Assembly: GCA_029938605.1 (NCBI GenBank)
Contig: JAOZUO010000003.1
Location: forward strand, 26,592-90,591
DNA length: 64,000 nt
Reading direction: 5' to 3'
From: Deltaproteobacteria bacterium
Lineage (GTDB): Bacteria; Myxococcota_A; Polyangia; HGW-17; JAJRWW01
Of the stretch, positions 13,301 to 34,879 are shown piece by piece. The stretch's first letter is position 1. Every line of letters begins with the position of its first letter. Under the pieces are notes generated by a model. That model had not been told where the DNA came from. It was given only the letters and a program-made list of their open reading frames with translations, and made no database searches. Both the position numbers and the translations under genes were made by a program.

Positions 13301-14127
13301 CAGTCGTCAGACTTCTTACCCTTGGCCGGGATCTTAGTCGAGCTCTCGGTCGGGCTCGGACTCGGGCTCGGGCTCGAGCTCGGGCTCGAGCGCCGAGCCT
13401 CGAGGCGCCCGAGGCGCTTGCGCACCGACAGGGCCAACAGCACCACTCCCAGGGTGGCTCCCAAGCCGAGCAGGAGCCCCAGCAGGCCGAGCAACCGAGC
13501 GAGGCTGTCCATCTTGAAGGACCGCTTGAGTTTGACGAGATCCCGCTGGCGCACCGGGCTGTCCCGCTCGATGACCGCGGTGACGCTGCGACCCGCCATG
13601 GCGTCCATGGTAGGGGTCGGGCCGGACGTCATGCCGGGCGTCATCCCCGGTCCCGGTGTCATGCCCGGGGTCATGGCCGTGACCGCTCCGGGCGGACCCA
13701 GCTCACAGGTAGGCCGGGCGGTGATGGCCTTGCCCCGCACCACGCGGAAAGCCAGAATGCGAGCCTTCTGAAAGTCCGAGGGGCAAAAGACCACGTCGGT
13801 CTTGGTGACATTCACCATGCGCTTGAAAGTCTTCACCGGGGCGCCGATGGCCCGAGCGCGGTACATGTACCGCTTGAGGGTGGGGTTGTCGTCCCGGGCA
13901 AACATCAGCCGCTCCACCCCGGGGGGCGGAGTCGCGTGAACAAGGCGGGGAATGCCACAGCCGGGGATGGCGTCCAGCTTCTGGGGCTTACCCCACTTAC
14001 AGACCACCTTCTGCCTGGGCTGCACCACCTGCGCCATCGCCCGGCCACCGGGAAGGGCCGAGACCAGACCCAGGACCAAGCCGGGGACCAAGCCAATCCA
14101 AAGTTGCCCGCGAATCGAACGCAGCAT
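13300..14127 (-). CDS. hypothetical secreted/membrane-anchored protein
   Basis: N-terminal signal peptide, PGMT repeats, C-terminal TM helix and an SPSPSP tail. Confidence 0.45.
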   Translation of the reverse strand: MLRSIRGQLWIGLVPGLVLGLVSALPGGRAMAQVVQPRQKVVCKWGKPQKLDAIPGCGIPRLVHATPPPGVERLMFARDDNPTLKRYMYRARAIGAPVKTFKRMVNVTKTDVVFCPSDFQKARILAFRVVRGKAITARPTCELGPPGAVTAMTPGMTPGPGMTPGMTSGPTPTMDAMAGRSVTAVIERDSPVRQRDLVKLKRSFKMDSLARLLGLLGLLLGLGATLGVVLLALSVRKRLGRLEARRSSPSSSPSPSPSPTESSTKIPAKGKKSDD

Positions 14128-14285
14128 GACTCCTCCGCTGCAAGCGCCGCCATGGAAGGCGACAGTTTCAGAAAGGCGCAGTGTAGCGCGTCAGGCCGCC
14201 TACGACAAACGCCCATACACGGTTCCTGATACGCTGGTTTGGGGGGTCGGCTTCCCTATCGGAAATCACATTTCTGACCTGCGCC

Positions 14286-15644
14286 CTAGGAACTGGGTTC
14301 GGCGGCGCTCACGGGCACAACGGCCGAAGCAGAGGCAGAAGCCGAGACCGGGGCCAGGGCCGAGGTCGAGCGATACCGATCGCCATGCGAAGCCGCTCCC
14401 AGGTCGCGCGCGCCGGAGGTTGGCCGCCCGGCACGACGCTGGCGCTGATAAAAGTACTGCGCCACGAACGCCATCAACGCCAGGGCGCTGCACACCAGCA
14501 GCACCGGGCGCATGGCCCCCGCGGTGGGCGCGTTGCCAGCAGCCCCGGTGCCGGTGAGCTTGAAGATGAGACTCAGCAGTGGCGCCACCGCGAGCAGCAC
14601 CAACCGCTTGGCCGCGCTCTCGGCCGACAGCACCGTGGCGCGCACGCCGGAATCGGACATCTCCTCGTTGATCAGGGTCTTGACCACCGGCGAGTACACC
14701 CCGGTGACCACGTAGTGACTGACCATGAGCCCCACCACCATGAGCGGCCCAAGCAGGCCCATGAACAGGTAACAGACCACCAGCACGGCCGGCAGCGCCC
14801 ACAGGATGGGCTCCTGCCAACGCTCCCAGTTGGCCCGCCCCAGACGCAGGGCCGCCGCGGCGCCCACGAAGTTGAGCCCAGCGAAGGCCAGCCCGATTCC
14901 CAGGAAATTGAACCCCTGATTCTTGAGCACGGGCTGGAAGAGCGTGCCGCTCAGGATGACCAGGGTAAACAGCAGGGCCGAGTAGACGAGCAACCAACAC
15001 AGGGCCGGGCTCCGGCGAATGGTGTCGAGCCCCTGGCGCATGCCCATCAGCAGCCCCGGCCCCTGGGGTTGGGTGGCCTCACCGCGAACGCGTCCGCGGG
15101 TGGCCGGGAAGAAGAAGGTCACCCCGAAGGCACCGGCACAGGTGACGGCGGTCACCAGGAAAGTGGCGTCAGGACTGCGCACGAAGGCCAGCATTCCCCC
15201 CGCCGCGGCGGCGACGCCAAGGCCCACATACTTCGCCGCGTTGGCGACGGCCTCCCGACGCAGGTACTCTTTGGCCCGGCCGGCGGCTTTGAGTTGATCG
15301 TACAGATAGGCCGAGTCCGCGCCCGAAGTGAGCGTCAAGCCAGCGGCGAAGAGAACCTCGCAAAGAGCCAGCGCGGCGAAACCCGGAGCCACGTAGTACC
15401 CCACCGAGGCCACGGCCATGAGCAAGGAGCCCAGCCGCATGGATCTCCTTCGACCCAGGCGATCCGCCCAGGCACCCGTGGGCACCTCCAGGGTGAAAGC
15501 CGCCGCGGTGAAGATCGTCTGCAACAGCAAGATCTCGGCCATGGACAGGCCCCGGGCCAGGAACACAAAGACGAACACAGCCTTGTGCAGGTGTGCCGTA
15601 CACAGAGCCCGGTAGAGGTTATAAAGCCAGAGAGTCCGCGCCAT
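14286..15644 (-). CDS. MFS transporter
   Basis: ~12 predicted TM helices. MFS motif-like GAWADRLGRRRSM after TM2. Confidence 0.7.
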   Translation of the reverse strand: MARTLWLYNLYRALCTAHLHKAVFVFVFLARGLSMAEILLLQTIFTAAAFTLEVPTGAWADRLGRRRSMRLGSLLMAVASVGYYVAPGFAALALCEVLFAAGLTLTSGADSAYLYDQLKAAGRAKEYLRREAVANAAKYVGLGVAAAAGGMLAFVRSPDATFLVTAVTCAGAFGVTFFFPATRGRVRGEATQPQGPGLLMGMRQGLDTIRRSPALCWLLVYSALLFTLVILSGTLFQPVLKNQGFNFLGIGLAFAGLNFVGAAAALRLGRANWERWQEPILWALPAVLVVCYLFMGLLGPLMVVGLMVSHYVVTGVYSPVVKTLINEEMSDSGVRATVLSAESAAKRLVLLAVAPLLSLIFKLTGTGAAGNAPTAGAMRPVLLVCSALALMAFVAQYFYQRQRRAGRPTSGARDLGAASHGDRYRSTSALAPVSASASASAVVPVSAAEPSS

Positions 15645-15646
15645 GA

Positions 15647-16969
15647 TTACCGCGCCTCCGCTCTAGCTTGGGCCGTCAGGATCACGATGGCCGCCGCGGC
15701 CGTCAGCCGGGCGTTCTCACTGTCCGACGTCAGGTCGGGCGCCATCTTGGCCACCAGGGTTACGTCTCCGTAGGCACGGAGGGCCTGGGCCGCCTCCTCC
15801 CGCAGGGCCGTATGTTCCAAGGCCCGGACCAGGGCCGGGCGCGCCTCGGGAGCACCCAACTTCTGCAGGGCCAAGGCCACCCCCATGTGCATACCCGGCT
15901 CTTTCATGCGCGCCTTGAGCACAGCGAGCCCTATGCGGTCTCCCTTCATACCCAGGGCCACAGCAGCTCGGAGGCGATCGTACGGCGCGCGAGATTTTTG
16001 TAAAACCTCGCGCAGGTAGACCTGCCCCTTCTGATCCCCTAAGCGCACCAGCGCCTCGTAGGAGGTCATACGGTGCTGCCGGAGCCGAGCCAGCTGCCTG
16101 ATAACCCGCATCCCGGCCGAGTCGCCGCAACGAGCCAAGGCAAAGGCCGACGCCCACTGGACCGGTCTGCGGCGGGACACGAGGTCCTTTTTGAGCGCCG
16201 CGTTTCCCTCGGTGTGACCCAGGCGGGCGAGGGCCTCCGCCGCTCTTTGTCGGTTGGGCCACTTGTTGGATGCCAGAGCCTTACGCAAGACATCGAGGGC
16301 CCCGGCGTGCCCTTGCCCAGCGAGCACCCGGGCCGCCGTACGCCAATATCGCCCTGTGGAGTTGGCGAGGAATCCCTCCAAAATGGTCCAGGAACGCTTC
16401 TTGAGGGTCATGAGGCTCGGCCGGCGGCGGGTCCGGGGCGGCTCCACCACCTCCGGTGCCATCTCCCTACCGGCAGGCGCGACGCCGGAATTCACGGGCG
16501 GAGGCGACGAATTCAGGCTGCTCAAAGTGGCCGAAAGCGATGCCCGGTCAGTGGACACCCCGCCCGCAAAAGAGAGGATCAGAACCCCCACGATCACAAG
16601 CACCAGGGAGCACCCTCCCACCATTGTCGACAAGATCACTCGCCGCCGTCGGGACTCCGCCGGCGCGGGTGTCTCCACCGCCAGAGCCGAGACCTGCGGA
16701 GGTCCGGCGGGATCGGCAGCCGCGCCCGGCAGGGCCCGAGGTCGGGCGACGACCGCCGCCGAGGACTCCTCCTCGACGCGCGTACCCGATCCATCGGTGT
16801 CGGGTCGCAGAGCGGAACCAGACGAATCCTGGGACGCGAGCCCCTCGAGCACCCCCTCCCGGCAGGCCTCCGAACAGCACATCACCACACGATCATCCAC
16901 CACGAGGGGCGCATCCCCAAGCAGCGGATGCACCTCGCCGTGGCAACCGGGACAAGAGACCATGGTCAT
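15647..16969 (-). CDS. HEAT-repeat protein with an N-terminal Cys-rich zinc-ribbon-like segment and one TM helix
   Basis: N-terminal CPGCHGE...CCSEAC, then a TM helix (VGGCSLVLVIVGVLILSFAGG). The C-terminal half consists of PBS-lyase/HEAT-like repeats (LARLGHTEG..., LARCGDSAG..., LGMKGDRIG...). Confidence 0.55.
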   Translation of the reverse strand: MTMVSCPGCHGEVHPLLGDAPLVVDDRVVMCCSEACREGVLEGLASQDSSGSALRPDTDGSGTRVEEESSAAVVARPRALPGAAADPAGPPQVSALAVETPAPAESRRRRVILSTMVGGCSLVLVIVGVLILSFAGGVSTDRASLSATLSSLNSSPPPVNSGVAPAGREMAPEVVEPPRTRRRPSLMTLKKRSWTILEGFLANSTGRYWRTAARVLAGQGHAGALDVLRKALASNKWPNRQRAAEALARLGHTEGNAALKKDLVSRRRPVQWASAFALARCGDSAGMRVIRQLARLRQHRMTSYEALVRLGDQKGQVYLREVLQKSRAPYDRLRAAVALGMKGDRIGLAVLKARMKEPGMHMGVALALQKLGAPEARPALVRALEHTALREEAAQALRAYGDVTLVAKMAPDLTSDSENARLTAAAAIVILTAQARAEAR

Positions 16970-18039
16970 GGAAACACCATGGTTCTCTCCCAGCCGTACC
17001 GGGCGATGATCCAGTTGATGTGCTGGACGGCGTAGTTCCGTCGGGAAATGATCATGCGCAGCTCGCGCTCGGACAGCAGCGCCATGGGGGCGCCCGCCTT
17101 CTGGGCCATGCCCTGCTTGAGCCGCTTGTAGGTCAGCGCCTTGAGGTTTCTGAAAAGCTTCCGCGAAAAACGCTGCACGCGCTGCAGGCCCGTGCGTGCG
17201 TTCCTGCCACCCGTCGGTGTCGGGAAGAAGGAGTAGGTGTTGTCCATGAAATACAAGAACTTCGTGTCCGGCGTCCCCATGGTGTTAAACCCGGAGAAAC
17301 GGTCGGGGTTGTTGATCAGGAAATCGTACAGCAGCATGACCGACAGCTGCGCCGTAACCTCGGCGTACCGGGGCGGCAGCCGCTTGTAGGCCTTGAGCCA
17401 CTGGTGCCAGCGCTTGCGCGCTTTCCATCGGTCGATGGGGATGTATCGGATCTTCGGGATCCACCAAGACACCTCGCCCACCAGCCTGCCGCCCTTGCGA
17501 AACCTCGCCTCCTTCTTGAAACGGAAAAAGAACCGCCTCTCCCGGCGATCGATCTTGGCATACAGATCCCGCCAGGTGAGCACGCGCCAGGTGGCCGGCG
17601 GCACCCGACTCAACCCCAGGAGCCGATTGAGGCGGTAGGCGGCGATCTCCTTGCGGGGCACGGTCTGGGGATGGATCTGCTCGGGCTTGAAGGCCGCGCT
17701 GCTCCCGTCCGCCAGACGCAGCCGCAGCGACAGGCTGGATCCACCGCGGTTGAAGGTGATGCGCTTGATGGGCTGCCTTTGCATCCGCCGAAGCAGCACG
17801 TCGTCCGAGATCCCATTCCAGTAGCCCGGACGATCCCGTCGTAGGGTCTCACTGGGGATCTCGGCCACGGACGGCAGGGGCTTTTGGTAGAGCGCAGCCA
17901 GGAACACCTCCCGCTCCGTCGCGCGGGATCCAGCCGGTGCGGATCGGGCCCAGGACACTGTGGACGCCAAAATACCGAACGGAAGACAGAGGACAACCGC
18001 TGCAAGCACACGAAGCATTTGGCGTTTTCTTCTCATCAA
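16966..18039 (-). CDS. secreted protein with a Fam20/four-jointed-like (secretory kinase-like) domain
   Basis: Signal peptide. DFLINNPDRF and MDNTYSF resemble the Fam20C catalytic segment (DxLIxNxDRH ... DN). Lys/Arg-rich. Confidence 0.4.
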   Translation of the reverse strand: MMRRKRQMLRVLAAVVLCLPFGILASTVSWARSAPAGSRATEREVFLAALYQKPLPSVAEIPSETLRRDRPGYWNGISDDVLLRRMQRQPIKRITFNRGGSSLSLRLRLADGSSAAFKPEQIHPQTVPRKEIAAYRLNRLLGLSRVPPATWRVLTWRDLYAKIDRRERRFFFRFKKEARFRKGGRLVGEVSWWIPKIRYIPIDRWKARKRWHQWLKAYKRLPPRYAEVTAQLSVMLLYDFLINNPDRFSGFNTMGTPDTKFLYFMDNTYSFFPTPTGGRNARTGLQRVQRFSRKLFRNLKALTYKRLKQGMAQKAGAPMALLSERELRMIISRRNYAVQHINWIIARYGWERTMVFP

Positions 18040-18325
18040 AACGTCACCATCTTACCATCGATCGTTTGCCATTCGATCCGAGATCCCGTCGCGGCGGATC
18101 CGCTGTCTAGCTGGATCTCAAACAACCTGTGCCCACATTACCACACACTGGCATACATGTCCTACTTTTCGTGCATATTCCCCGGCTTCGTCTCCGACGG
18201 GGCCGGATCATCGGGGAGATCTTCCATAAATTTCGCTCCTCCATCTACTGTGCCTCTACCCAGATTACCCGCTGGTCCGCGGCGATGTTCCCATCCGGAG
18301 TGGAATCCGGACTTGCCGGACTTGA

Positions 18326-19420
18326 ATGGATTATATGGTAGAGTCGTCGAAGCCAACGGGAGAATCCATGTACCCCAGACCTGCACTACGCCAACCGCCG
18401 TTGCTCGTTTTCCTGCTGGTGATCCTGGTGACCACGGCGAGCTGCAACCTGACCCGCTACGCCATTCGGAAAAGCGGACCGGTCCTGGGAAATACCGTGG
18501 CGGTGCTCCAGTCCTATAAGGATCCGGAGATGGCCCGCCAGGCCACGCCGGCCCTGCTCGTGGTGCTCGAGGGGTTGCTCGCCTCGGACCCTGAGAATGC
18601 CACGTTGCTCCGGTTGCTCTGCCGAGGCCTCTATGAATACACCTTCGGTTTTCTGCAGTCCGACTACGAGCGGCTGCGAGAAAGCGATCCTGAGGGCGCC
18701 GAACGCATGCGGCGCCGGGCCCGCGGACAGTACGTAAAGGTGTACGAGCTGGGGCTGCGCCTGCTACGAACCCACGGCGTTCGATTCACCCTCCAAAAGA
18801 CGAAGAAGGAGGAGCTGACGCGGCAGATCGCCGGGCTGGACAAGCGGGCGGTCCCGGCGCTGACCTGGACCGCACTGGGCGCCGGCAGCGCGCTGCTGCT
18901 AGGCATCGATCAGCCCTGGTTGCTGCAGATGATCGGTAAGATCCCGCTGCTGCTCGAGCGCGCCGTGGCCCTGGATCCGAGCTACGCCAACGGTCTCCCC
19001 GTGGGCGGTCTCGCCCTATACTATGGGAGGGATTTGATGACGGGTGGGAGCGCCATCAAATCCCAGCGATACTTCCAGCAGGCCATCAGGATCTCGCGCC
19101 GACGCCACCTGCTGTATCTCGTGCTCTACGCCCGCTACTGGGCGTGGCAGTTCCAGAGCGTCGAGGTGGAACGGGTGGGGCGCGGCCCGTCCGCTCGCAA
19201 GGTCCCCCTTCGCCCCAAAAACAAGCGCGCACTCTTCGTTGCGCTCCTAGAGGAGGTGCTCCGCTTCCGGCTGGAGGACGCGCCCGAATTGCGGCTCTCG
19301 AACACCCTCGCCAAGCACATGGCCAAGCAGCTTATGCGGCGTAAGGACGATTTCCTCGGAATCCAAAGCCCACGAAGCCCACGAAGCCCGCACCACGCGG
19401 CACGCGGAGACCGACCATGA
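18326..19420 (+). CDS. TatT-like TPR lipoprotein (TRAP-transporter-associated)
   Basis: Lipoprotein signal (LLVFLLVILVTTASC) and an all-helical TPR-like fold. Overlaps (ATGA) the downstream DctP-family gene. Confidence 0.55.
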   Translation: MDYMVESSKPTGESMYPRPALRQPPLLVFLLVILVTTASCNLTRYAIRKSGPVLGNTVAVLQSYKDPEMARQATPALLVVLEGLLASDPENATLLRLLCRGLYEYTFGFLQSDYERLRESDPEGAERMRRRARGQYVKVYELGLRLLRTHGVRFTLQKTKKEELTRQIAGLDKRAVPALTWTALGAGSALLLGIDQPWLLQMIGKIPLLLERAVALDPSYANGLPVGGLALYYGRDLMTGGSAIKSQRYFQQAIRISRRRHLLYLVLYARYWAWQFQSVEVERVGRGPSARKVPLRPKNKRALFVALLEEVLRFRLEDAPELRLSNTLAKHMAKQLMRRKDDFLGIQSPRSPRSPHHAARGDRP

Positions 19421-20430
19421 AACGGCTGCTCATAACGATCACCACAGCGACGCTACTTTTCGGCGGCTCCGCCGACGGTCGGGCCGCCCCAGTCACCCTG
19501 AAGATCGCCACGGTAATGCCCCGGGGCGGTCCCTGGGCCAACGCCATGACCCGCATGGCCATCGCGGTAAAAAAGAAAACCAAGGGCAAGGTGGTGTTCA
19601 AGATCTACTTCGGCGCCGTGGCGGGCACCGAGCGGCGCGCCCTCAGCCGCATGAAGGCCAATCAGATCCAGGGACTGGCAGCGGCCTCGGCGGCCCTGTC
19701 CTCCATCGACAGCTCCATCCGGGTGCTGGAGCTGCCCATGCTCTATCGCTCCTACAAAGAGTTCCGCTTCGTGATCAAGTCCATGGAACCCATCTTCAGG
19801 GAGCGCTTCAAAAAACGCGGCTACCGCCTGCTGGCCATGGCGAGCGTGGGCTGGATCTACCTCTACTCCAAAAACCCCATCCGCTCACTTCCTGACATCC
19901 GGCGCTGTAAAATCTGGCGCTGGAAGCACGATCCCATGGTCAATGCGATATTCAAGGTCATGGGCATGCGCACCCAGACGGCACCGGTTACCGACGTGCT
20001 GGCGTCCTTGCAGGCGGGCACCATCGACACCGTCTACGGCATGCCGCACACCACCCAGGCCCTCCAGTGGCACACCAGCGTCAAGTACGCCCTCGACTTC
20101 CGGATCAACATGGCCATCGGATCGGTGCTGATACGCAACGACGCCTTCGCCAAACTCACCGTCGCCCAGCAGAAGGTTGTGCAGGACCAGGGCCGGATCA
20201 TGCAGCGCTTTTTGAACCGAACCTCGGCGTCCATCAACGCCAAGGCCCTACGCTCCATGCAACGCAGCGGCCTGAAGCTACTCAAGCCGTCCGCCTCTTT
20301 CTTCAAGCAGCTCCGGGGCCTCAGGATCAAGCTCCGGAAGAAGCTACGCAACACCATGTACAAGCCGGCCGACCTTAAAAAAATCAAGGCCCTGCTCACC
20401 CTGTGCCGCGTCACCTCCTGCACCATCTGA
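19417..20430 (+). CDS. TRAP transporter solute-binding protein, DctP family
   Basis: Signal peptide plus DctP-family conservation (KIATVMPRGGPWANAM..., WKHDPMVNAIFKVMGMRTQTAPVTDVLASLQAGTIDTV). Confidence 0.7.
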   Translation: MKRLLITITTATLLFGGSADGRAAPVTLKIATVMPRGGPWANAMTRMAIAVKKKTKGKVVFKIYFGAVAGTERRALSRMKANQIQGLAAASAALSSIDSSIRVLELPMLYRSYKEFRFVIKSMEPIFRERFKKRGYRLLAMASVGWIYLYSKNPIRSLPDIRRCKIWRWKHDPMVNAIFKVMGMRTQTAPVTDVLASLQAGTIDTVYGMPHTTQALQWHTSVKYALDFRINMAIGSVLIRNDAFAKLTVAQQKVVQDQGRIMQRFLNRTSASINAKALRSMQRSGLKLLKPSASFFKQLRGLRIKLRKKLRNTMYKPADLKKIKALLTLCRVTSCTI

Positions 20431-21491
20431 GCCGCGCCGCGTACGCGGCCCTGGCAGCAACCCTGGCCACATCCTGGCTTGGCGCCTGCGTGGACAAGCC
20501 CGCGCCAACGGCGCACAGAAGCAAGGTGGTGCTCCCCAACCTCACGGCCTCGGAGCAGGGTCGGGCACCGAAAAGTACCGCGACCCGCCCAGGCCCTACC
20601 ACCTCGGCGGCGTCTCTGAGCCCAGGCCTGGGAGCCGGGCCCGGAACCGTGGACGCGGCCCGGGTACAGCAACGTCTGTCGGGCGCGACCCAATCGATTC
20701 TGGATCTGCGCCCCGCCCGACAGTTCCGTCGTGGCCACCTTCCGGGTGCGCGCAACGACCCGGAGGGGCGCGCGCTCCTGGCGGCGTTGGGCGCGCACCG
20801 ACGCACCGGCGCCCCGGGCAAACCCGGAATTCACCCCGGGGGACCATCCGCCCCGACGGTGGTGCTGGTACACAACGGACGAGATCTTCGCGATCGGGCG
20901 ATTGCGACCCGGGCCTATCTCGTGCTCTACGCCGGTGGTGTCGCCCCCGAGCGCCTGGCCATCCTGCGGGGGGGCTACGCCACCTGGCGCCGACAGCAGC
21001 GGCCTCGGTCCACGGCTGGTCCATCCACCACGGCCACCACGGCCACCACGGCCACCACGGCCACCACGGCGGCTGTCCCGAAAAGCAAGGCCGTGTCCCC
21101 CCGACTACCCCGGTCCCGCCGACAGGTGCTGCTCACCGATCCCGCGGCTCTGGCCGCCGCCCGGAAGCGACCCCGGACCGTGCTGGTACACACTGGCCGA
21201 CGACGCCCAGCGCTCAGTACCCGACGGCCGGCCCCTGCCTGGCTGCGATTCGGCGTGGCACCCCTGGAGCCCGCCCCCGGAGCGTTGCCCCTCACCACCG
21301 CTGAGCTCCGTAAACGCATGGGTCCTGTGCTAACAGCCGGAGACAAGGTTCGACTCATCGCCTTTAGTGAACACGGCCTGTGGGCGAGCCTGGTCTGGTT
21401 CACCCTCAAGAACCGACTCGGTCGTCCCGACCCGCAAAACGCGGTGTACCTGGGTCCCAGCCCGATCCCAAGGAGCATCCCCGCCCGGTGA
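20403..21491 (+). CDS. hypothetical lipoprotein with a possible rhodanese-like segment and a TTATTATTATTA tract
   Basis: Lipoprotein signal (LATSWLGAC). ILDLRPARQFRRGHLPGARN resembles a rhodanese active-site-loop neighbourhood. Low complexity. Confidence 0.4.
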   Translation: MPRHLLHHLSRAAYAALAATLATSWLGACVDKPAPTAHRSKVVLPNLTASEQGRAPKSTATRPGPTTSAASLSPGLGAGPGTVDAARVQQRLSGATQSILDLRPARQFRRGHLPGARNDPEGRALLAALGAHRRTGAPGKPGIHPGGPSAPTVVLVHNGRDLRDRAIATRAYLVLYAGGVAPERLAILRGGYATWRRQQRPRSTAGPSTTATTATTATTATTAAVPKSKAVSPRLPRSRRQVLLTDPAALAAARKRPRTVLVHTGRRRPALSTRRPAPAWLRFGVAPLEPAPGALPLTTAELRKRMGPVLTAGDKVRLIAFSEHGLWASLVWFTLKNRLGRPDPQNAVYLGPSPIPRSIPAR

Positions 21492-21584
21492 CTCTAGGCC
21501 ACCGGGCCCACTGATCTCTCACCGCTTGACGCTCCCGGGGCAATGCACCTAAGCTGAACCGCTGAAACGCGGCGGTTCCGCGCA

Positions 21585-22181
21585 TTGGTAAAGATCATGC
21601 GACCCATCGACATCTGTACGCGCCTCGGTTCGGCGCGAATCACCACCATTTGCGAACAGCTGAACTCAAACCAGCTCAAGACCACCTTGCGTAAGGCCAA
21701 CCTCAACACCAAGGTTCCGTCGCGGGTGGTGTCCCAGAAGGCCCGCCGGAAGATCTGGGCCGAGCGGGTAGTGACGAGCCTCAACAAGGACAACGAAGAG
21801 GTGGCAGACAACCTGCTGTACGAGTGGCTGCTGCACCACCGCCGCAACATGCTCATCGAATACCTCGACTCCATCGGAGTCCGACACCAGGGCGGAGAGA
21901 CAGAGGAGACCTTCACCAAAACGGTCCCGGTGGAGGATCTGCTCAAGGCCGCCCGGAACCTGGCCTCCGTACACCCGGCCGACGAGGTGGCCGCCTACGT
22001 CCTGTACCTGGATCACCATCAGGAGAGTGACGTCTTCACCAGCGCGCCGGACATCGTAGCCCTCCTGGCCCCGGCCCCGGCCCCGGCCCCGGCCCCTGAT
22101 TCCGACTCCGCAACCTCCCCATCCTCCCCATCCTCCCCATCCTCCCCATCCTCCACTGGCGCCACCGACGCCGCCGAATGA
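21585..22181 (+). CDS. hypothetical protein
   Basis: Coding-like composition. Overlaps (ATGA) the downstream TPR gene. SP-rich C-terminal tail. Confidence 0.4.
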   Translation: MVKIMRPIDICTRLGSARITTICEQLNSNQLKTTLRKANLNTKVPSRVVSQKARRKIWAERVVTSLNKDNEEVADNLLYEWLLHHRRNMLIEYLDSIGVRHQGGETEETFTKTVPVEDLLKAARNLASVHPADEVAAYVLYLDHHQESDVFTSAPDIVALLAPAPAPAPAPDSDSATSPSSPSSPSSPSSTGATDAAE

Positions 22182-22957
22182 CCCGCGGCGCGGGCGACAG
22201 CCGGAAGCGCTCTTGTCCCTACCATCCCGGGGTCGTGGCCGACACCCCCTGTGACCACTGTGGTCGGCTGTTTTGCACCGACTGCGTCAAAAGCTGGAAT
22301 GGCAAACACCTCGGTCCCGGGTGCCGTCGGGACCGCGTACGCCGCCGGGTACTCATCGGAATCGTGGTGGCCATAATGCTGGCCGGTCCCGCGGCGGTGA
22401 TCGTCTGGGGATACGATCAGCATCGCCGCTATGGCTCGGCGCGACACCGCATCCACGCCCGGCAAAAGATGCTCCAGAAGTTTCCGCATTCGGCCGGGAT
22501 CCGGCTGCGCCTCGCCCAGGACCTCCTGGGTGCGTCCAGGCCGAAACAGGCCAAGACCCAGCTCGACCGCCTCCTCAAAGACCACCCCAAACATCTGGGC
22601 GGGCTGCTCACTCGCGGGCGGCTGGCCACCTCGGAGGGCGACCACTCCGGGGCGCTGCGCTACTGCACACGCGCGCTCCTTTCGGTGCCGCGATCCCAAG
22701 CGGCCCGCCTCGCCGTTGCTCGCGCCTTTTTGGCCCTGGAACGTCCCGACAAGGCCGAAGCCACCCTACGGGCCGGGCTGAAACGCACCCCCCGGTCGCT
22801 GAACCTGACCTTGGAGCTGGTCAGTATTCTCACAAAGCAAAAACGAACCAAAGAGGCCCTCGAGCTGCTCCGACAAGCCCAACGCCACGCCAGGTCCACC
22901 ACGACCCAAAAATCACTCCACCGCCAGATCCAACAGCTCACGACTTCAGAGAAGTGA
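22178..22957 (+). CDS. TPR-repeat protein with an N-terminal zinc-ribbon (CxxC...CxxC) and one TM helix
   Basis: N-terminal CPYHPGVVADTPCDHCGRLFCTDC, TM helix VLIGIVVAIMLAGPAAVIVWGY, then four or more TPR-like repeats. Confidence 0.6.
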   Translation: MTRGAGDSRKRSCPYHPGVVADTPCDHCGRLFCTDCVKSWNGKHLGPGCRRDRVRRRVLIGIVVAIMLAGPAAVIVWGYDQHRRYGSARHRIHARQKMLQKFPHSAGIRLRLAQDLLGASRPKQAKTQLDRLLKDHPKHLGGLLTRGRLATSEGDHSGALRYCTRALLSVPRSQAARLAVARAFLALERPDKAEATLRAGLKRTPRSLNLTLELVSILTKQKRTKEALELLRQAQRHARSTTTQKSLHRQIQQLTTSEK

Positions 22958-23565
22958 CGTCTCGCAGCCTCACAGCCTCGCAGCGCACTGCATATCCGCT
23001 GAAGGCCCCACGCGGGGAGACGGATCTCTGAATAAGGTCCAAACCGGCAGAAATCGATGTACTTCGTTTTCAGCAGAGTTTCTCCCTGATAAAGAAAAAA
23101 ATCCGAACACCCAGACGTCAGGGGTCACCCACACCGCCAGCGCTACGCACCAGGCTCGCGGTCAACGGCGTGTCAGTACAGTGAGGGCGGAGGAGGATAA
23201 TCGGACGCCAAAGACGTGCTCCACTGCGGCGAGGCAGACGAACGTCGCCACCGGTGGTTCCGCCGCCGGGCAGACGGCCGGCAGGGACCACCGGAACTTC
23301 CCAACTGGGGCCCACCGGCGCTGAAGCGAACGTCGCCCAATCCGGTACTCAGGGATCCCGTGGGCTGTCCCGTCGTGGATCGGCACCCTTCGCAGCTCAC
23401 AGCGGGCGCATACCTGTCTAGGTGCCCAAACCGCATTCCCGATGGTTGAATCCTTGGGTTTTTCCCCGACTGCGCCAACCGCTGGTGAAAAAACTCATCC
23501 CAGCACCACCGATGTTCTCGCCGCCGCCGACACCTACGTCGACCAGCGCTTAGTGGCCGTTGAAT

Positions 23566-23752
23566 GTTTCACTTTTTCGCCAGATAAATCACCTCTGCCA
23601 AATCTGAAACAGAAAGGGCCCTTTGGTGTTCCACTTTCGGCCCAGATGCGTCATCTCAGCCAAATCTGAAATAGATTTGGCCCTTTGGTGTTCCACTTTC
23701 CCGTCAGATAAATCATCCCAACCGATTCTGAAACAAATCTCCGCTGACAGAG
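23566..23752. repeat. ~62-bp tandem repeat x3, each unit carrying a hairpin (ccaaatctgaaatagatttgg), inside a 1.2-kb non-coding region
   Basis: The units begin gtttcactttttcgccagataaatc..., gttccactttcggcccagatgcgtc... and gttccactttcccgtcagataaatc.... The palindrome in the central unit is perfect. Confidence 0.6.
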
Positions 23753-24196
23753 CTGCTACAAAACTCGCGCACGTCATTGCATCCCACATTGCGCTCGACG
23801 TCGCGGTGCAGAACCACACGGGACGTGGCAGGCGTTGGCACACGTCCCTGGCTGACGCGGCCCACTGGACGAAATCGCGGACGCTCGGGCAGCGCTCACC
23901 TTCTTTCAGATCGACGGAAAACCCGGCGCTGCCCATACGTAGGCGGTTTCATCCAGCGTCCGTGCCAGCGTTTGACACTCGACGTCAGGACCTTGTCAGT
24001 CACCCACGGCCATGTGAATGAAGGATGGGTGATCTTACACCACGATTCATCGCCGAGAACCGTTGGACTGTCCCTGAACCTGCGCGAGCAAACCAACAAA
24101 AAATTTGGCAGGGCCCGACGTAGGCGGTTTCACCTGGCGTACGCACCAGCGACCCTAGCCTGGAATTTGAGATCTAACTCTGGTATCACCGCCGAC

Positions 24197-24529
24197 ATGA
24201 TCTGGCTCCGACTCAAACTCCGACGCACGCTCCGACGCACGCTCCAACTCGAGCGCTGGCTGATGATCTGGCCCTTGGTCCTGGGGATCGGGCTGGCCGC
24301 TAGCTGTGGAGACGGGGACATCCGTAAGGGGTGTAAGAACTACTGCAAGTGTCATCGGGGCAAGGACAGCGATTCGGCCTGCCGTTCACGTTGCAGCGAG
24401 CGGCTGCACGCCCTGAAGAAGCGTGACCGACCCCAGGCGCGACAGATCGCGGACTGCCTGGCGGCCAAGGGCGAACGGAAATGCAGTGAGCTGGCCGCCT
24501 GCGCCGGATCCGTCCTGAAATCGAAGTAG
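24197..24529 (+). CDS. small cysteine-rich lipoprotein (paralog of 9497-9859)
   Basis: MIWLRLKLRR...LVLGIGLAASC signal, then CKNYCKCHRG...CRSRC...C...C. The ATG at 24197 lies within the longer track ORF 23777-24529. Confidence 0.45.
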   Translation: MIWLRLKLRRTLRRTLQLERWLMIWPLVLGIGLAASCGDGDIRKGCKNYCKCHRGKDSDSACRSRCSERLHALKKRDRPQARQIADCLAAKGERKCSELAACAGSVLKSK

Positions 24530-24622
24530 TTTCTCTGAAATCTTCAGGTTTCGCCTGGTCCCCTGTAAGACAGTGGGCCCAAGGGGCGTTCCCTAGCTGA
24601 ACTACTCAGCAGGAGGCGCCCC

Positions 24623-25645
24623 ATGGTCCGCAACACTATCGTAGCCATCTCCGTGACATTGCTGGCCTTCGCCGGCTGCGCGGGAAACAAAGCCCACCAG
24701 ACGTACTACCCCCAGCCAGTCGATACCGGCTACAGCGGACAGGGCAGCGCCCGTGGCAGCGCCCGTGGCAGCGCCCGTGGCAGCGCCACCACCACCCAGA
24801 GCTCCGATGGCTATGGCGAGTCGTCCCGGGCCCCGGCGACGAACCGCGGCCGAGGCGCCTACCACCGCACCTCCCGGCCTGGATCCGCAAGTGGAGGCGC
24901 CGCCCAAAAACGCTCCGGGGTTCGCGTTCCTCCACCGGCCCCCGGCGCCTCCCCCACAAACCGACCCTATCGTCGCCGGGAGACGCGCCGCATCGTCCGA
25001 CCGCGGCCCACGCACCGACCGGGCCTGGCCACCGTCTTTGGCGAGCGGGTGCGCAGCCGCGTTTCCTTCACCTCCTTCCGACGAGCGCACACGCGCCCCG
25101 ACAGTCGGGTGTCCATCCACTACAACGACTATCGCGGCCTCGTGGCCATGACCCGTCATCTCCGCCGACGATGCTGTGGAACCCTGTCGCCCTACCGCGT
25201 GCGGGCGGGCGTCACCATCCAACTCGTCGACCAGAATCGGCGCCCCCTGCGCGGCGTACAGCTCGGCGGCCGAACCATCGTCATGGGTCGCTCCGGCACC
25301 CGCTACGGCATCCTCGTCCAGAGCTACTCGAGCCGCCGCTTTGAGATCGTCGCCTCGGTGGACGGCCTGGACGTCATCGACGGCAAGCGCGCCGGGCTCA
25401 CCAAACGAGGCTACATCCTGGCCCCCCACGGCCGCCTGTTCATTCGCGGTTTCCGCACCAGCCGCTACAACGTCGCCGCCTTCCGCTTCGGCTCCGTCTC
25501 CAACAGCTACGCCGCCCGCACCACAGGCAACACCCGCAACGTGGGCGTCGTGGGCCTCGCGGTGTTTGGCGAGTATCGCCCCACGTACACCAGCGAGGCG
25601 ATCCGTCGCCTCCGAGCCCGCCCCTTCGCCCAGCCCCCCCGCTGA
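24623..25645 (+). CDS. hypothetical lipoprotein
   Basis: Signal plus lipobox (LLAFAGC), SARG x3 repeat, Arg-rich linker, beta-rich C-terminal domain. Confidence 0.5.
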   Translation: MVRNTIVAISVTLLAFAGCAGNKAHQTYYPQPVDTGYSGQGSARGSARGSARGSATTTQSSDGYGESSRAPATNRGRGAYHRTSRPGSASGGAAQKRSGVRVPPPAPGASPTNRPYRRRETRRIVRPRPTHRPGLATVFGERVRSRVSFTSFRRAHTRPDSRVSIHYNDYRGLVAMTRHLRRRCCGTLSPYRVRAGVTIQLVDQNRRPLRGVQLGGRTIVMGRSGTRYGILVQSYSSRRFEIVASVDGLDVIDGKRAGLTKRGYILAPHGRLFIRGFRTSRYNVAAFRFGSVSNSYAARTTGNTRNVGVVGLAVFGEYRPTYTSEAIRRLRARPFAQPPR

Positions 25646-25688
25646 TCACCGCAGCTCTAATCCACTTGGCCCACTTGGAGGGAGGAAA

Positions 25689-27788
25689 CTACTTCAGGGA
25701 CCGTTTGGCCTCGGGGAGATCGCCGAGGGCGGCGGCGCGGAGGTGGGCACGGGCTGCCTTGTTGTGGCCGGCGGCGTACAGGAGTCGAGCGGCGAGGAAG
25801 AGATTGCGAGACCAGTGGCCGATGAGCACCCGTCGCCTCCAGCGGAGCGGAGGGCCGCGAAGGACGCCGGCGCGGGTGACTTTGAGGTTCGACGGCGACA
25901 GCGCGGGACGGTAGGCGGGGGGGACGCCGGCGCGAAGGGCGCGGAGGGCATCGGCAGGGCGTCCGAAACGCCAGAGGATATCTCCCCGCTCCAGGGAGAT
26001 CCCTGCGGCTACATCGGCGGAGGGAGCAGAGCCCTCGGCCACGTCTCGGGAGTGGCGCTCAAGAGCTGGGGCCATGGCGTCGGGGCTGTTTGCGAAGGCG
26101 AACCGGCAGGAAGCATCATCAGCCACGAGCCAGACCCCCGGGCAGCCAGGGCGACGGCCCAGGGCGAGGGCATAACCGTAGTGCTCATAGAGCACCGGGC
26201 GGCGGGGGTTGGCGGCGAGGAAACGCTTGATGCGGCCCAGCCGACCACCGGGGCCGCGCAATTTGAACCGGCGCAGATCAGCATGATGTTGGTGGAGGAG
26301 ACGCCAGTACCAGGACGCGCCCGACAGCCCCACGGGCAGAATCACCACATCGGGACGGAGCCTTTCGGCCCGGTGCAGGTACAGCAGCGGAAAGACCCAG
26401 TGGTCCGACTTCACGATCAGAATCGCCCTGGTGGGGGCCGTCTTGAGGGCACCGGCGGCCATGGTGCGCGCGAGGCGATCATTGTGGCGTTTGCGCTGAT
26501 GGATGGCGGGGTGCGCTACGGCCACGCCCAGCAGCAAAGCCACGCCCAGACCCGCGGCCAGCCATCGGAATCGACCGCCCAGGCCCGCCAGGCGCACCAC
26601 ACCGGCGCAAGCGCCGGCCCCCAGGACCCCCACGGAGAGGGCGAGGTAGCCCACGTAGTCCGGAATGGACGGCCAGAAGATCACGTTCTGGATGAGCATG
26701 GCCAAACCCAGGCCGAAGGCGAGAACGGCGAATCCACGGCCCAGCCCGGAGCGGCGCGCCAGGAGGAAGTGGGCCACGAGGCCGACTAGGACCAAGGGGA
26801 GGAGCAGGTGGGTACCGGCCCAGGACACCCAGCGGCTCAGGTTGTCCGCGATCTGCGCTGCGGCGATGCCCTGGTTGTGCACGAAGTCGGCGTTGGTGAG
26901 GTAGCGACGCAGGGAATCACCGCCCGTGGGCGCGCCCCAGACAAAGACGTCCGCGCGGCCGGCCACCAGAGGAATGTACAGGAAGGGCGCCAGGCCGACG
27001 ATTCCGCCACCCACACCGCGCAGCACGTCGAAAAGACGGACCCGGCGCCCGTGGACGGTCACCGCGAAGGCCGGCGCCAGGGCGAGGGCCGCCGACAGGG
27101 CAATAATGGCATTGACCGAGGCTGAGAGCCCGAGGGCAACTCCCACCGCGAACCAACTCCACCCGTGGGTGAGCTCCTGCGCCCGGGCCCCATGGACACG
27201 ATCCTCGCCGGGGACGGAGGCGGGGGGCAAGGAGGGGGGGGGCAAGGAGAGGGGAGGTACGAAGAGAGGCGCTGCCCGAGCCACGGCCCAGGTGGCCAGC
27301 AGCGTAGCCAGGCTGTAGACCTCTATGCGGGTGGCGTTCTCCCACAGGGCGGGCTGCAGAGCGAGGAGGCCCACGCCCGCCGGCAGGATCACCTCCGGAC
27401 AAAAACATGGGTGGCTCGACGAATCCGACGGTTGGGGGGCGCCGTCGGCGGGCTTGCACAGCGCCTCGGCGATGCTGACCAGAGGCACCACGGTCAGCGC
27501 CGCCGCCAGCGCGGACAACAGGTTCAACCCCACCAGCCCCGAGATCCCGGGCAGACGCGAAAAGAGCCAGCCGAGCATCGTGTGCAACGGCTGTCCCAGG
27601 GGATGACCCAGGCCCCCGTTCACGGCCACCAGAGCCAGCTCCGGGCTGTCGTAGAAGGACAGATCCCGGGACATGGTCAGCAGGTAGTACAAAAAGACCG
27701 CCCCCGAGGCGATCCAGGCGTTACGACGGGCCCCGAGGGGCAATCCCAACGAGCTCCAGGAAGGGGCCGCCGACGAATTCTCGGTCAC
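25689..27788 (-). CDS. large polytopic membrane protein, DUF2723/glycosyltransferase-39-like, with a C-terminal TPR-like region
   Basis: At least 10 TM helices followed by a helical repeat tail. The start is set at the GTG overlapping (GTGA) the stop of the upstream acyltransferase. The track ORF extends to 28121 but that part overlaps the acyltransferase gene. Confidence 0.5.
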   Translation of the reverse strand: MTENSSAAPSWSSLGLPLGARRNAWIASGAVFLYYLLTMSRDLSFYDSPELALVAVNGGLGHPLGQPLHTMLGWLFSRLPGISGLVGLNLLSALAAALTVVPLVSIAEALCKPADGAPQPSDSSSHPCFCPEVILPAGVGLLALQPALWENATRIEVYSLATLLATWAVARAAPLFVPPLSLPPPSLPPASVPGEDRVHGARAQELTHGWSWFAVGVALGLSASVNAIIALSAALALAPAFAVTVHGRRVRLFDVLRGVGGGIVGLAPFLYIPLVAGRADVFVWGAPTGGDSLRRYLTNADFVHNQGIAAAQIADNLSRWVSWAGTHLLLPLVLVGLVAHFLLARRSGLGRGFAVLAFGLGLAMLIQNVIFWPSIPDYVGYLALSVGVLGAGACAGVVRLAGLGGRFRWLAAGLGVALLLGVAVAHPAIHQRKRHNDRLARTMAAGALKTAPTRAILIVKSDHWVFPLLYLHRAERLRPDVVILPVGLSGASWYWRLLHQHHADLRRFKLRGPGGRLGRIKRFLAANPRRPVLYEHYGYALALGRRPGCPGVWLVADDASCRFAFANSPDAMAPALERHSRDVAEGSAPSADVAAGISLERGDILWRFGRPADALRALRAGVPPAYRPALSPSNLKVTRAGVLRGPPLRWRRRVLIGHWSRNLFLAARLLYAAGHNKAARAHLRAAALGDLPEAKRSLK

Positions 27789-28282
27789 CGGCGCTGCCTC
27801 ACCACCCGGGCGGGTACGCCTACGGCCACGCTGAAGGCCGGGAGATCCTCTCGCACCACCGCGCCGGCGCCCACCTGGACGCCCCGGCCGATGGTCACGC
27901 CCCCAAGGACCACGGCGTTGCACCCGAGGTCGCTGCCGTCCCCGATACGCACGGGCAAAAAGTCCAGGGGACCGCCCATGATGGGCTGGTCGGGACCGGG
28001 GTCTCGGTGCGCGGAGGTGAGTATGCGGCACCCTGAACCCACGCCCACCTCGGCGCCCAGGACCAAGCCCCCGGCGCCGTGCAACAGACAGTGCTGCCCG
28101 ATCCAGGTGTCCGGGCCGCAAATGAGCTCGCCCGCGTGGTAGCCGTTGAGCACAGCGTAGTGCCCCACGTAAACGTTGTCGCCCAAAGAGACGTTCTCAG
28201 GATGCAGGATCACGGCTCCGGGCTCAATGATCACTCCATCGCCGCAGGATCTCAGATCTTCGGGTCGAACCATAGCCTCCAT
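27785..28282 (-). CDS. hexapeptide-repeat (left-handed beta-helix) acyltransferase
   Basis: Repeated [LIV]G-x4 hexapeptides (VYVGHYAVLNG, CLLHGAGGLVLGAEVGVGSGCRI, VVLGGVTIGRGVQVGAGAVV). Confidence 0.7.
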   Translation of the reverse strand: MEAMVRPEDLRSCGDGVIIEPGAVILHPENVSLGDNVYVGHYAVLNGYHAGELICGPDTWIGQHCLLHGAGGLVLGAEVGVGSGCRILTSAHRDPGPDQPIMGGPLDFLPVRIGDGSDLGCNAVVLGGVTIGRGVQVGAGAVVREDLPAFSVAVGVPARVVRQRR

Positions 28283-28473
28283 CCTGTCTCGTACGCTTCT
28301 CCATGAGTGGTCAGAGTTTAAACAATAGCCAGGCCTTTGGCTAGCTGACCTACTTATTCCTGGCCAAATTCTATGGCAAAACCTATGGCCAATTCCCTTG
28401 ACTTGGGGGGCTGAAATGCTATCAATTTGGCCTCGATCGCCGGAAGCAACAAAAACATAAGGAAAACGACCTC

Positions 28474-29937
28474 ATGGACGAATCACACCTCCAACTCAAG
28501 CTGGAGTCGCCGAGCCCGGTAACCCGCACCATTACGGGTGAAATCGCATGGGAGCCCGTGCGCGAAAAGCTGGACGAAGCCTACAAAGAGCTGGGGAAGA
28601 CCATCACCCTCAAGGGCTTCCGCAAAGGCAAAGTGCCCAAGGGTATGCTCAAAAAGATGTTCCACAAGCGCATCGCCGCTGAGATCTCCCATACCCTCGT
28701 GCAAGAGGCCCTGGTGGACGCCATCACCCGCTTGGAGCTGCGACCCGTGTCGCCCATTCCGGACTGGGACGTCGACGAGAAGGACATCGTGGAGGGCGAG
28801 TCCCTGGGCTTCTCCGCCACCCTGGAGGTGTTGCCCGAGGTGGAGATCACCGAGTATGAGGGGCTGGAGGTCAAGCGTCGGGAGGCCGCGGTCAGCGACG
28901 AGGATGTGGAGCGCTTCCTGGAGTCGAAACAGAACGAGCTGACCCAGTACCTCCCGGTGGAGGAGACCGACATGGTCGTGGGCCACATCGTGCGCTGCGA
29001 CGTCATGGGCAAGATCGGCGGCGAGCCCGTAAGCATGGAGGGTTTGACCTTCCAGCTCAACGATCCCCAGAGCGACGAAGAGTCCGGTCCCGACCCCGAC
29101 CCCGAGCGAGCGGCCATGATCGCCAAGATCACCAGCGAGCTCGTGTCCACCCGCCCCGAGGACGCCGAGCGCGACCTGACGTTCACCTGGGCCGAGGACG
29201 CGCCCGAGGCGTGGGCGTCCAAGGAGGCCCAGCTCCTGGTGGAGATCGAGGCCGTACGAGAGCGAAAAACGCCGGAGCTCGACGACGAGTTCGCCCGGGA
29301 CATCGGGGAGGCCGAAACGCTGTCGGACTACCGGGAGATCGTACGTAAGCAGCTGCTGGAAGCCGATGAGGAGCGCGTGAAGCAGGATCTGCGCCGGTCG
29401 GTGGAAGAGGCGTTGATCGAGAAGAACCCCGTTGAGGTCTCTGCCACGCTGGTGGAGCGGCAGCTCAACTCGGTCATGGAACGCGCCCAGATGGCCTTCC
29501 AAATGCGAGGGGTCTCTCCCGACATCTTCGGCATGGACAACGAAAAGCTCCGGGACCAGTTCCGAAGCTCGGCCGAGTCGGAGGTCAAAAAGACTCTGCT
29601 GACAGACGCCTTGGCCAAGAAGTTGGACGTGAAGGTCTCCGACGAGGAGCTCGAGGAGCGGCTCAAGGAGATCGCCGAGGCCCGTAGCGAAAGCTTGGAG
29701 CGGGTCAAGGCTGAGTATGAAAAGAACGCCGGAAGCGAGGCTCTGCGGGTGGTCATGCGCGAGGAGAAGGTCCTTGACTTGCTCCTAGACAGTGCCCATG
29801 TTACGACAGTGCAAGGGTCGGATGAGGCCGAGACCGAAGACCTGGAAAACGCGAAGAAATCCAGTAGGGACGCGGGTAAAGAGGACGGTTCCGAGGCCCC
29901 ATCCGAGTCCGAAGACAGCGAGCAGAAGGAGTCGTAG
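28474..29937 (+). CDS. tig: trigger factor
   Basis: Trigger-factor N-domain (GFRKGKVPKGMLKKMF), PPIase-like middle region and C-domain. Sits in the conserved tig-clpP-clpX-lon context. Confidence 0.9.
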   Translation: MDESHLQLKLESPSPVTRTITGEIAWEPVREKLDEAYKELGKTITLKGFRKGKVPKGMLKKMFHKRIAAEISHTLVQEALVDAITRLELRPVSPIPDWDVDEKDIVEGESLGFSATLEVLPEVEITEYEGLEVKRREAAVSDEDVERFLESKQNELTQYLPVEETDMVVGHIVRCDVMGKIGGEPVSMEGLTFQLNDPQSDEESGPDPDPERAAMIAKITSELVSTRPEDAERDLTFTWAEDAPEAWASKEAQLLVEIEAVRERKTPELDDEFARDIGEAETLSDYREIVRKQLLEADEERVKQDLRRSVEEALIEKNPVEVSATLVERQLNSVMERAQMAFQMRGVSPDIFGMDNEKLRDQFRSSAESEVKKTLLTDALAKKLDVKVSDEELEERLKEIAEARSESLERVKAEYEKNAGSEALRVVMREEKVLDLLLDSAHVTTVQGSDEAETEDLENAKKSSRDAGKEDGSEAPSESEDSEQKES

Positions 29938-29940
29938 ATC

Positions 29941-30614
29941 TTGTCCAACCCCTCAGGCCTGAGGCCACTGAACTCCATGCTGATCCCAACGGTCATCGAA
30001 CAGACCCACCGCGGTGAGCGGGGTTGGGACATCTTCTCGAGGCTGCTCAAGGATCGGATCATCTTTCTCGGCACCGAGATCGACGACACCGTGGCCAACA
30101 TCGTCATCGCGCAGCTGCTCTTTCTGGAATCCGAGGATCCAGACAAAGACGTCATGCTGTACCTCAACTCCCCCGGGGGGATTGTCTCGGCGGGCCTCGC
30201 GATCTACGACACCATGCAGTATGTGCGCTGCGACGTCTCCACCATCTGCATGGGCCAGTCGGCCTCTATGGCGGCGGTGCTCCTGACGGCGGGCGAAAAG
30301 GGCAAGCGCTTCATGCTGCCCCACGCCCGGATCATGATCCACCAGCCCAAGGGCGGCGCCATGGGTCAGGCCTCGGACATCGAGATCCAGGCCAAGGAGA
30401 TCCTGAAGAACCGAGAGCTGCTCAACGAGATCCTGGCGCGGCACACGGGCCAGAAGATCACGCGCGTACGCAAAGACTCGGACCGGGACTACTACATGAA
30501 CGCCACCGAAGCCATCGAGTACGGCATCGTGGACAGCCTGCTCGTGCGCGCCCAGGCCGATGAGGACAGTCCGGAGGCGGCCGCCGGTACGTCCGGCAAA
30601 AAGAGCGGCGGCTG

Positions 30615-30615
<1 letters not shown>
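29941..30615 (+). CDS. clpP: ATP-dependent Clp protease proteolytic subunit
   Basis: [24 protein letters not shown]...NSPGG...[12 protein letters not shown]...IMIHQP with the Ser-His-Asp catalytic triad context. The true start may be an internal ATG at ~29977. Confidence 0.9.
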
Positions 30616-31859
<1,244 letters not shown>

Positions 31860-31961
31860 CCCCTCCCCTTCCCCCACGCTGTTTTCTTGCGCCCCAGGCA
31901 CGGACGCGGCAAAGTGACCCGGTAAAGACTCTCCAGACCCTATCGGATGAGGTAGACGGCC

Positions 31962-34520
<2,559 letters not shown>

Positions 34521-34721: not shown

Positions 34722-34738
34722 CTTTTCGATGTACGTTT

Positions 34739-34812
<74 letters not shown>

Positions 34813-34878: not shown

Positions 34879-34879
34879 G

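Follow-up and report, generated by a model that had tools for sequence, protein, structure and literature searches.

The 64,000-nucleotide stretch analysed here (the window; contig JAOZUO010000003.1 of the deltaproteobacterial assembly GCA_029938605.1) is otherwise densely coded, and a crude gene map based on G+C content at third codon positions (GC3) showed a sole stretch of more than 1 kb without a credible gene. This 1.2-kb region, positions 22958-24196, is the spacer between two genes of the forward strand, one encoding a 259-aa membrane-anchored TPR protein (22178-22957; Pfam TPR_19, E 2e-20), which served as synteny anchor and whose homologues (46-80% identity) all come from metagenomes or metagenome-assembled genomes (MAGs), and the other encoding a 110-aa Cys-rich small protein (24197-24529, with the ATG at 24197 and not at 24198; 92% amino acid identity to L013 728-1054 of the nearest relative). 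A first-pass annotation, made from the sequence, had described the region as comparatively AT-rich, devoid of a convincing open reading frame (ORF) and marked by a poly-A tract and local repeats, and had proposed that it might hold stacked terminators or protein-binding sites, small RNAs (sRNAs), a decayed mobile element or prophage end, or a regulatory hub for the flanking genes. Its G+C content is indeed low (58.5% versus 63.9% for the window, within the lowest 3.5% of same-size windows), and the poly-A tract lies at 23092-23100.

The lack of a gene was borne out by codon-position G+C content, Pfam and a search of 5.8 billion protein clusters. GC3 periodicity, though strong in both flanking genes, is absent across 22958-24196, Pfam returned zero matches for the internal ORFs of at least 40 aa (the five largest included), and 24 stop-free six-frame segments of at least 35 aa, run as a concatenated query against the cluster collection, found nothing at E<=0.01. 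As this collection includes the TPR protein of the window itself (P0001), the gene callers of the source assembly had called no gene in the region. A bona fide conserved protein-coding gene, which the annotation had named as the finding that would overturn its description, was looked for and not found; with neither a conserved ORF with homologues nor codon bias, the region does not qualify as a protein-coding gene. The Rfam scan that had been suggested brought up no known RNA family: the covariance models of Rfam 15 gave no match in the region at the gathering score and only sub-threshold noise at E<=10, the best match being to a eukaryotic miRNA model (E 0.22). The only RNAs found in the window by ARAGORN, tRNA-Val and tRNA-Asp near 34.7 kb, lie outside the region, and a scan of the region for sigma-70-like promoters called none.

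The nearest relative is represented by L001 and L013, contig ends from one metagenome (JGI 3300083231), to which we refer as the sister genome. L001 is collinear with window positions 12193-23184 and matches again at 23911-24063, and L013 is collinear with 24159-35938 and has a further match at 24064-24094. Behind the stop codon of the TPR gene, L001 holds 857 bp without a called gene and then, from position 11637, a gene that runs off the contig end and encodes a lipoprotein signal peptide (MKRLTVLLTLVLLATTAC) followed by myxobacterial Cys-rich repeats (myxo_disulf_rpt TIGR02232, DUF4215). L013 opens with part of a gene (2-658) that carries five near-identical BNR_4-like repeats of ~55 aa (~165 nt) and ends in '...ARLDCP*', 70 bp before the Cys-rich gene; because of these near-identical repeats the assembly broke at both contig ends.

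A 3' stub of this lipoprotein gene is retained on the forward strand of the window at 24064-24094. Identical to L013 645-675 at 29 of 31 bases (93.5%; E 7e-7), it comprises the last four codons (L-D-C-P), the TGA stop codon (24075-24077) and 17 downstream bases. Directly before the stub, at 24063, ends a segment that we call block B (23911-24063), which is 84% identical over 154 nt to L001 11335-11484; its counterpart in the relative lies 150-300 nt upstream of the lipoprotein ATG, with ~150 nt between the block and the ATG. As the end of block B abuts the stub, the window carries a deletion that starts directly behind block B and ends four codons short of the stop codon, with its junction at 24063|24064. 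Searches of the window with the relative's lipoprotein fragments (tblastn and tblastx) found no remnant beyond the stub. The stub shows two differences where about seven would be expected at the neutral level, which suggests that the deletion was recent. We also observed a GGAACC-N17-CGTCAA sequence at L001 11489-11520, ~115 nt upstream of the lipoprotein ATG, which presumably resembles a promoter of an extracytoplasmic function sigma factor; the deletion in the window starts immediately before it.

In more distant relatives the TPR and Cys-rich genes stand close together. At least 11 Myxococcota loci (L002, L003, L004, L005-L007, L008, L009 and L014-L016) show a compact arrangement in which the stop codon of the TPR gene is followed by 36-90 bp, a Cys-rich gene of ~100 aa and a gene of ~330 aa, and for L012 the same state is suggested by ORF spacing; the insertion site is not covered by L017 and L018, which start within or beside the 340-aa gene. 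Exact look-ups retrieved no record of the window's own TPR protein. A scan of a genome collection with the single TPR protein gave no match, and with an alignment of TPR homologues it gave one distant Myxococcota MAG, likewise compact. Extra DNA between the TPR and Cys-rich genes was found solely in the window genome and its nearest relative. The comparison with related strains, which the first-pass annotation had proposed as a check for an insertion, thus did reveal one, all more distant relatives joining the flanking genes via 36-90 bp. In an identity matrix of the TPR and 340-aa proteins the window pairs with L001/L013 and L004 with L014, the two pairs group together, and the remaining loci fall outside, which places a single origin of the extra DNA on the branch shared by the window and its sister.

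The right boundary of the extra DNA is an ancestral promoter-like element of the forward strand (CTGGAATTTGAGATCTAACTCTGGTATCACCGCCGAC, 24160-24196), which is 80-97% conserved in every relative, compact or not. The conserved element CTGGAATTTGAGATCYAACTCTGGTATCACCGCCGAC ends the short ancestral spacer and directly abuts the ATG of the Cys-rich gene in all relatives, the window copy being located at 24160-24196 (24160-24199), and this segment may well be the promoter of the Cys-rich gene. Seven nucleotides before the ATG, TGGTATCAC resembles an extended -10 box, which would imply a leaderless mRNA. From 24159 onward, the ancestral promoter and the downstream genes align to L013 from position 690 onward, with 90% identity over 24159-24700. 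On the far side of the Cys-rich gene, its spacer to the 340-aa gene (24530-24622) is 94% identical to that of the sister, includes a 62-nt perfect run and can be recognised even in L002, a more distant relative; the spacer is probably a leader or promoter under strong constraint.

At the left junction (22958-23040), which is absent from compact relatives, there is a short match to L001 (22958-~22985 versus 10781-10800), an 8-bp micro-repeat present three times (CTCGCAGC, 22961-22984, detected by Tandem Repeats Finder [TRF]) and the short motif CTCGCAGCGGGCGCATACC in degenerate form. Just 36% of 22958-24196 aligns to the sister, whereas eight of nine other intergenic regions align fully between the two genomes, mostly at 68-81% identity, and the ninth over 51%. 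Apart from block B, the aligned segments include block A (23041-23184), which is shared only with the nearest relative; its identity to L001 10845-10987 is 91% when taken over 144 nt and 93% when taken over 131 nt. The poly-A tract lies in block A, as do the motif ACTTCGTTTTCA and a perfect run of 49 nt (23121-23169), the latter ranking alongside those in clpX, lon and the tRNAs. As a neutral yardstick, four-fold degenerate sites of nine orthologous genes are 76% identical between the window and the sister (1,187/1,565). Block A (93% over 131 nt) lies ~4.6 and block B (86% over 122 nt) ~2.6 standard errors above this level, by a hand binomial z estimate on windows picked after the fact, which inflates both figures. 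A shared ORF is excluded for block A by a 1-nt indel and non-conserved stop codons and for block B by two 1-nt indels and one 3-nt indel. Conservation above the four-fold level without a shared ORF argues that both blocks have been under selection as non-coding DNA, and the likeliest role for them would be that of the regulatory region of the inserted lipoprotein gene. Block A may in particular be a regulatory or sRNA element. A candidate binding site is the motif GACTTCGTTTTCA, with three occurrences in the spacer of the relative (L001 10864, 11136 and 11262) and one in block A (23061), which is significant against shuffles. Both blocks are absent from every other relative examined and from a metagenome scan; matches of a block A 22-mer to two metagenome loci were rejected as chance, the similarity being confined to 22-23 nt.

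Taken together, we regard the region as the relic of a gene gain followed by a gene loss, and not as a gene or a repeat-based device, with a probability of about 0.72. The annotation had listed decay among its options, and in outline this has proved right, the extra DNA stemming from a cassette with a cellular lipoprotein gene, which the nearest relative has intact and the window has lost by deletion. The ancestral order was the TPR gene, 36-90 bp and the Cys-rich gene, with the promoter-like element already present in the short spacer, as the compact relatives indicate. By parsimony, an insertion then took place between the TPR stop codon and this promoter on the branch to the window and L001/L013 and brought in several hundred base pairs of non-coding DNA, together with one or more genes for a secreted lipoprotein. 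From the gene terminus that the window has kept, and from blocks A and B, which it shares with its sister, we conclude that their common ancestor carried the gene, the outgroups being without the whole insertion. The lipoprotein gene was later deleted in the window lineage, leaving orphaned blocks A and B and the 31-nt 3' stub. Three marks of a deletion scar are found at this site: a gene at the orthologous position in the relative (as the fragments L001 11637 to contig end and L013 2-658), a recognisable remnant and a polarity given by the outgroups. The unconstrained DNA between the blocks presumably then gained a 62-bp minisatellite, which decayed to 72-76% identity, and a partial duplicate of block B, whereas the relative gained other repeats; these repeats are most likely functionless. 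Selection would have preserved blocks A and B themselves, either for a cis-regulatory role at the inserted gene or for a small transcript, and a promoter within them, if there is one, may still be active and now point to the Cys-rich gene.

Several points weigh against this history. The order of segments differs between the two genomes, the piece GGATCGGCACCC...CAGCGGGCGC lying after block B in L001 and before it in the window, so that a single clean deletion is not the whole story. As only one genome shares the extra DNA, the polarity of the sub-events is undecidable, i.e. whether the 65-nt duplicate of block B was gained here or lost in L013 and how the fillers between the blocks (X and Y, described below) originated. 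Both genomes are metagenome assemblies, the L001 and L013 fragments are only presumed to be one gene, and the junction is known from the assembly alone. Finally, at 91-93% identity block A is more conserved than one would expect of the regulatory DNA of a lost gene, unless the loss was recent or the block has a separate function; a recent deletion, as the stub suggests, would explain the conservation of the blocks without a present function.

A separate function of this kind is the core of a possible, though in our opinion rather doubtful, alternative, in which the conserved blocks, chiefly block A, are functional in themselves, as an sRNA gene or a cis-regulatory platform for the TPR and Cys-rich genes, and the region is a working hub. 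As it concerns present function only, it is compatible with the history of gene loss. The identity of block A and its 49-nt perfect run stand out against both the four-fold sites (76%) and the other intergenic regions (mostly 68-81%), the block has persisted in a genome that lacks the adjacent gene, and its motif GACTTCGTTTTCA is found twice more in the spacer of the relative. On the other hand, the blocks gave no Rfam match even at E<=10, and their folding energy is not in excess of that of shuffled sequences on either strand (z -0.7 and +0.1 for block A, 0.0 and -1.0 for block B), a result that would not speak against an unstructured sRNA. Neither a sigma-70-like promoter nor a convincing terminator accompanies them, all other relatives and the metagenome scan lack them, two sequences preclude an analysis of covariation, and recent gene loss explains their conservation equally well. 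Of the regulatory or sRNA role that the first-pass annotation had considered, a possibility is left for blocks A and B, which it had not singled out, and none is indicated for the repeats that it had emphasised. More tentatively still, block A, possibly together with block B, might be an undescribed functional element (an sRNA or regulatory platform) that arrived with the lipoprotein cassette, was kept by purifying selection after the deletion and was co-opted for the TPR or Cys-rich envelope genes. If true, this would be an example of regulatory DNA that outlived its gene.

The remainder of the region consists of window-specific DNA with local repeats. The most conspicuous is a tandem array of ~3 units of 62 bp (23554-23752), which has a G+C content of 46% and was found by both TRF (23565-23735, period 62, 2.8 copies, 76% matches) and a separate repeat search (23554-23735, units 72-76% identical); the three tandem units described in the annotation are hence real. 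They were said to carry perfect hairpins, which is so for unit 2 only (10-bp stem, 23659-23681, z -3.1), the hairpin of unit 1 being imperfect (z -1.1) and that of unit 3 missing (z 0.0). It is improbable that these units act as stacked intrinsic terminators for the TPR operon or as an array of sites for a DNA-binding protein. Three head-to-tail copies, a 12-nt palindrome at the boundary of units 1 and 2 (AAAGGGCCCTTT) and the hairpin of unit 2, which has a 3-nt loop and a T-containing tail (CCTTTGGTGTT) and was called terminator-like, would fit such a function. However, the stem of this hairpin has only four G-C pairs, its tail is not a clean U-run, and a single good hairpin, degraded in unit 1 and absent from unit 3, does not exceed the chance expectation, the region holding three terminator-like sites against 2.2 +/- 1.4 in shuffles. 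Moreover, the units have drifted to 72-76% identity with mismatches spread evenly over the whole unit and no conserved core, and the array lies 600 bp past the TPR stop codon. It has no counterpart in L001/L013 or any other locus compared, no further copy of the unit's 22-mer core was found in the window or in the viral contigs scanned, and the units are unrelated to the sister's own spacer repeats and to the block A motif (p 0.09-0.97).

The second repeat of the annotation, a 38-bp direct repeat with copies 185 bp apart, exists as well, as a 34-nt repeat with 82% identity (23937-23970 and 24118-24151), at a spacing of 181 bp. Its 17-mer core is found at just those two sites in the window, with none expected by chance. 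Copy 1 lies inside block B and copy 2 in a window-specific segment of 65 nt (24095-24159) that duplicates the 5' half of block B locally; L013 is without a counterpart of this segment, only 14 nt separating its stub homology from the promoter, and copy 2 was not found in any other sequence searched. Filler X (23185-23553, 65% G+C) is likewise window-specific and has no BLAST match except at 23377-23414, a short motif that matches L001 11544-11563 (95% over 20 nt) and L001 10796-10810; the filler carries a second copy of the motif CGCAGC...GGGCGCATACC (23372-23414). A weak and tentative alignment of 23319-23543 to L001 11485-11696, i.e. to the promoter-proximal DNA and first codons of the lipoprotein gene (score 61; shuffles 34.7 +/- 4.9, maximum 55), hints that the upstream region was duplicated earlier or that a second cassette has decayed here. 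Filler Y (23753-23910), which is window-specific and has no counterpart in the sister or other loci, contains one arm of an imperfect 31-nt inverted repeat that extends into block B (23865-23895 and 23926-23956, 77% complementary). In the equivalent position the sister has other repeats, a pair of ~35-nt units spaced 126 bp apart, which have GACTTCGTTTTCA in common with block A. Judged by eye, neither the 34-nt repeat nor the CGCAGC motif qualified as a sigma-54 promoter, the -12 element or the spacing being unsuitable. Most likely, both the 62-bp array and the second 34-nt copy are neutral local duplications; the spacer between the conserved blocks would be unconstrained and turn over through local duplication and indels, with the 62-bp minisatellite as a by-product and not a device.

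There is little in favour of the proposal that the region is a decayed mobile element, i.e. a remnant of a miniature inverted-repeat transposable element (MITE) or insertion sequence (IS), a prophage end or an integron-like cassette site, with the repeats as its ends or as sites of recombination. The region does represent inserted DNA in comparison with other genomes, its G+C content is below that of its surroundings, and both genomes have the short motif CTCGCAGCGGGCGC at the left junction and a second time inside. Yet the mapped junctions show no terminal inverted repeats or target-site duplication, no remnant of a transposase, integrase or reverse transcriptase was detected in any frame, no part of the region has a second copy in the 64-kb window or the 18 fetched loci, no similarity to phage or plasmid collections was found, and the relative's cargo is a lipoprotein gene of an ordinary myxobacterial kind. 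A lone GTTGAAT core-like site, confined to unit 1 of the array, was rejected as an integron attC site, with no integrase nearby. A chimeric or collapsed join that merely simulates the deletion, as might be feared for a MAG whose relative broke at the ~165-nt repeats of this very gene, is very improbable, because 24063|24064 joins unique upstream DNA to unique last codons, a repeat collapse would have spared the unique signal-peptide and Cys-rich part, and the window-specific fillers X and Y, 62-bp array and duplicate segment are beyond what a collapse could produce.

The conspicuous gene-free gap of the window would thus be an evolutionary leftover, which calls for caution before a meaning is assigned to local repeats and hairpins when long intergenic regions of MAGs are interpreted. 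It would also document that, in an uncultured clade of Myxococcota, a secreted Cys-rich/BNR-repeat lipoprotein was gained and then lost at one fixed site. The only part that merits an experiment is the ~140-nt block A.

Some further observations were made elsewhere in the window. A 156-bp unit is repeated 1.9 times with 98% identity at 39819-40109 (TRF), inside a 593-bp intergenic gap (39734-40325), and this repeat is far younger and longer than the 62-bp array. Long in-frame tandem repeats of a hexamer (GAGCCG, ~34 times, 7990-8274) and a 15-mer (GCCCACCGCCGACGA, seven times, 8614-8723) are located in a 748-aa ORF (7214-9460), which indicates a low-complexity repeat protein. The lowest G+C content of the window (~55%) was found at ~51.9-53.2 kb (51872-53171). 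This stretch seemed gene-free in the GC3-based map and was rejected as a second gap, as it holds a 262-aa P-loop ATPase-like ORF of atypical composition on the reverse strand (52259-53047); it could be foreign DNA.

Among known systems, arrays of clustered regularly interspaced short palindromic repeats (CRISPR) share with the 62-bp array a regular period of ~60 bp and a partly palindromic segment, but here the whole unit is repeated without unique spacers, and no cas genes are found in the flanks. Repetitive extragenic palindromic sequences, the mosaic elements built from them (REP/BIME) and MITEs are likewise short palindrome-bearing repeats of intergenic DNA; in contrast, the repeats described here are confined to one locus, as judged from the window, the compared loci and the phage and plasmid collections, and are without the terminal inverted repeats of a MITE or IS. 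Intrinsic terminators are approached by unit 2 with its 10-bp stem and 3-nt loop, and by none of the other units, while its tail and its few G-C pairs set even this unit apart. The array does agree with minisatellites, also known as variable-number tandem repeats (VNTRs), which arise by replication slippage: the 62-bp unit is arranged head-to-tail about three times at one locus, is lineage-specific, and its copies are diverging. Unlike in a typical VNTR, the units are old (72-76% identical) and not near-identical, and the array is probably no longer expanding or contracting.

Relics of gene loss with long intergenic spacers have been described for the genomes of Rickettsia and Mycobacterium leprae. 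As in these relics, the spacer is long and non-coding in a dense genome, a close relative has an intact gene at this place, a terminal fragment of the gene is left (24064-24094) and the unconstrained parts turn over fast. The region differs from them in that the loss took the form of a clean deletion instead of slow pseudogenisation, the spacer is mostly former upstream DNA and not decayed coding sequence, and the lost gene was a recent, lineage-specific acquisition. A gene-loss relic with an intergenic minisatellite is, as such, a well-known and ordinary kind of feature.

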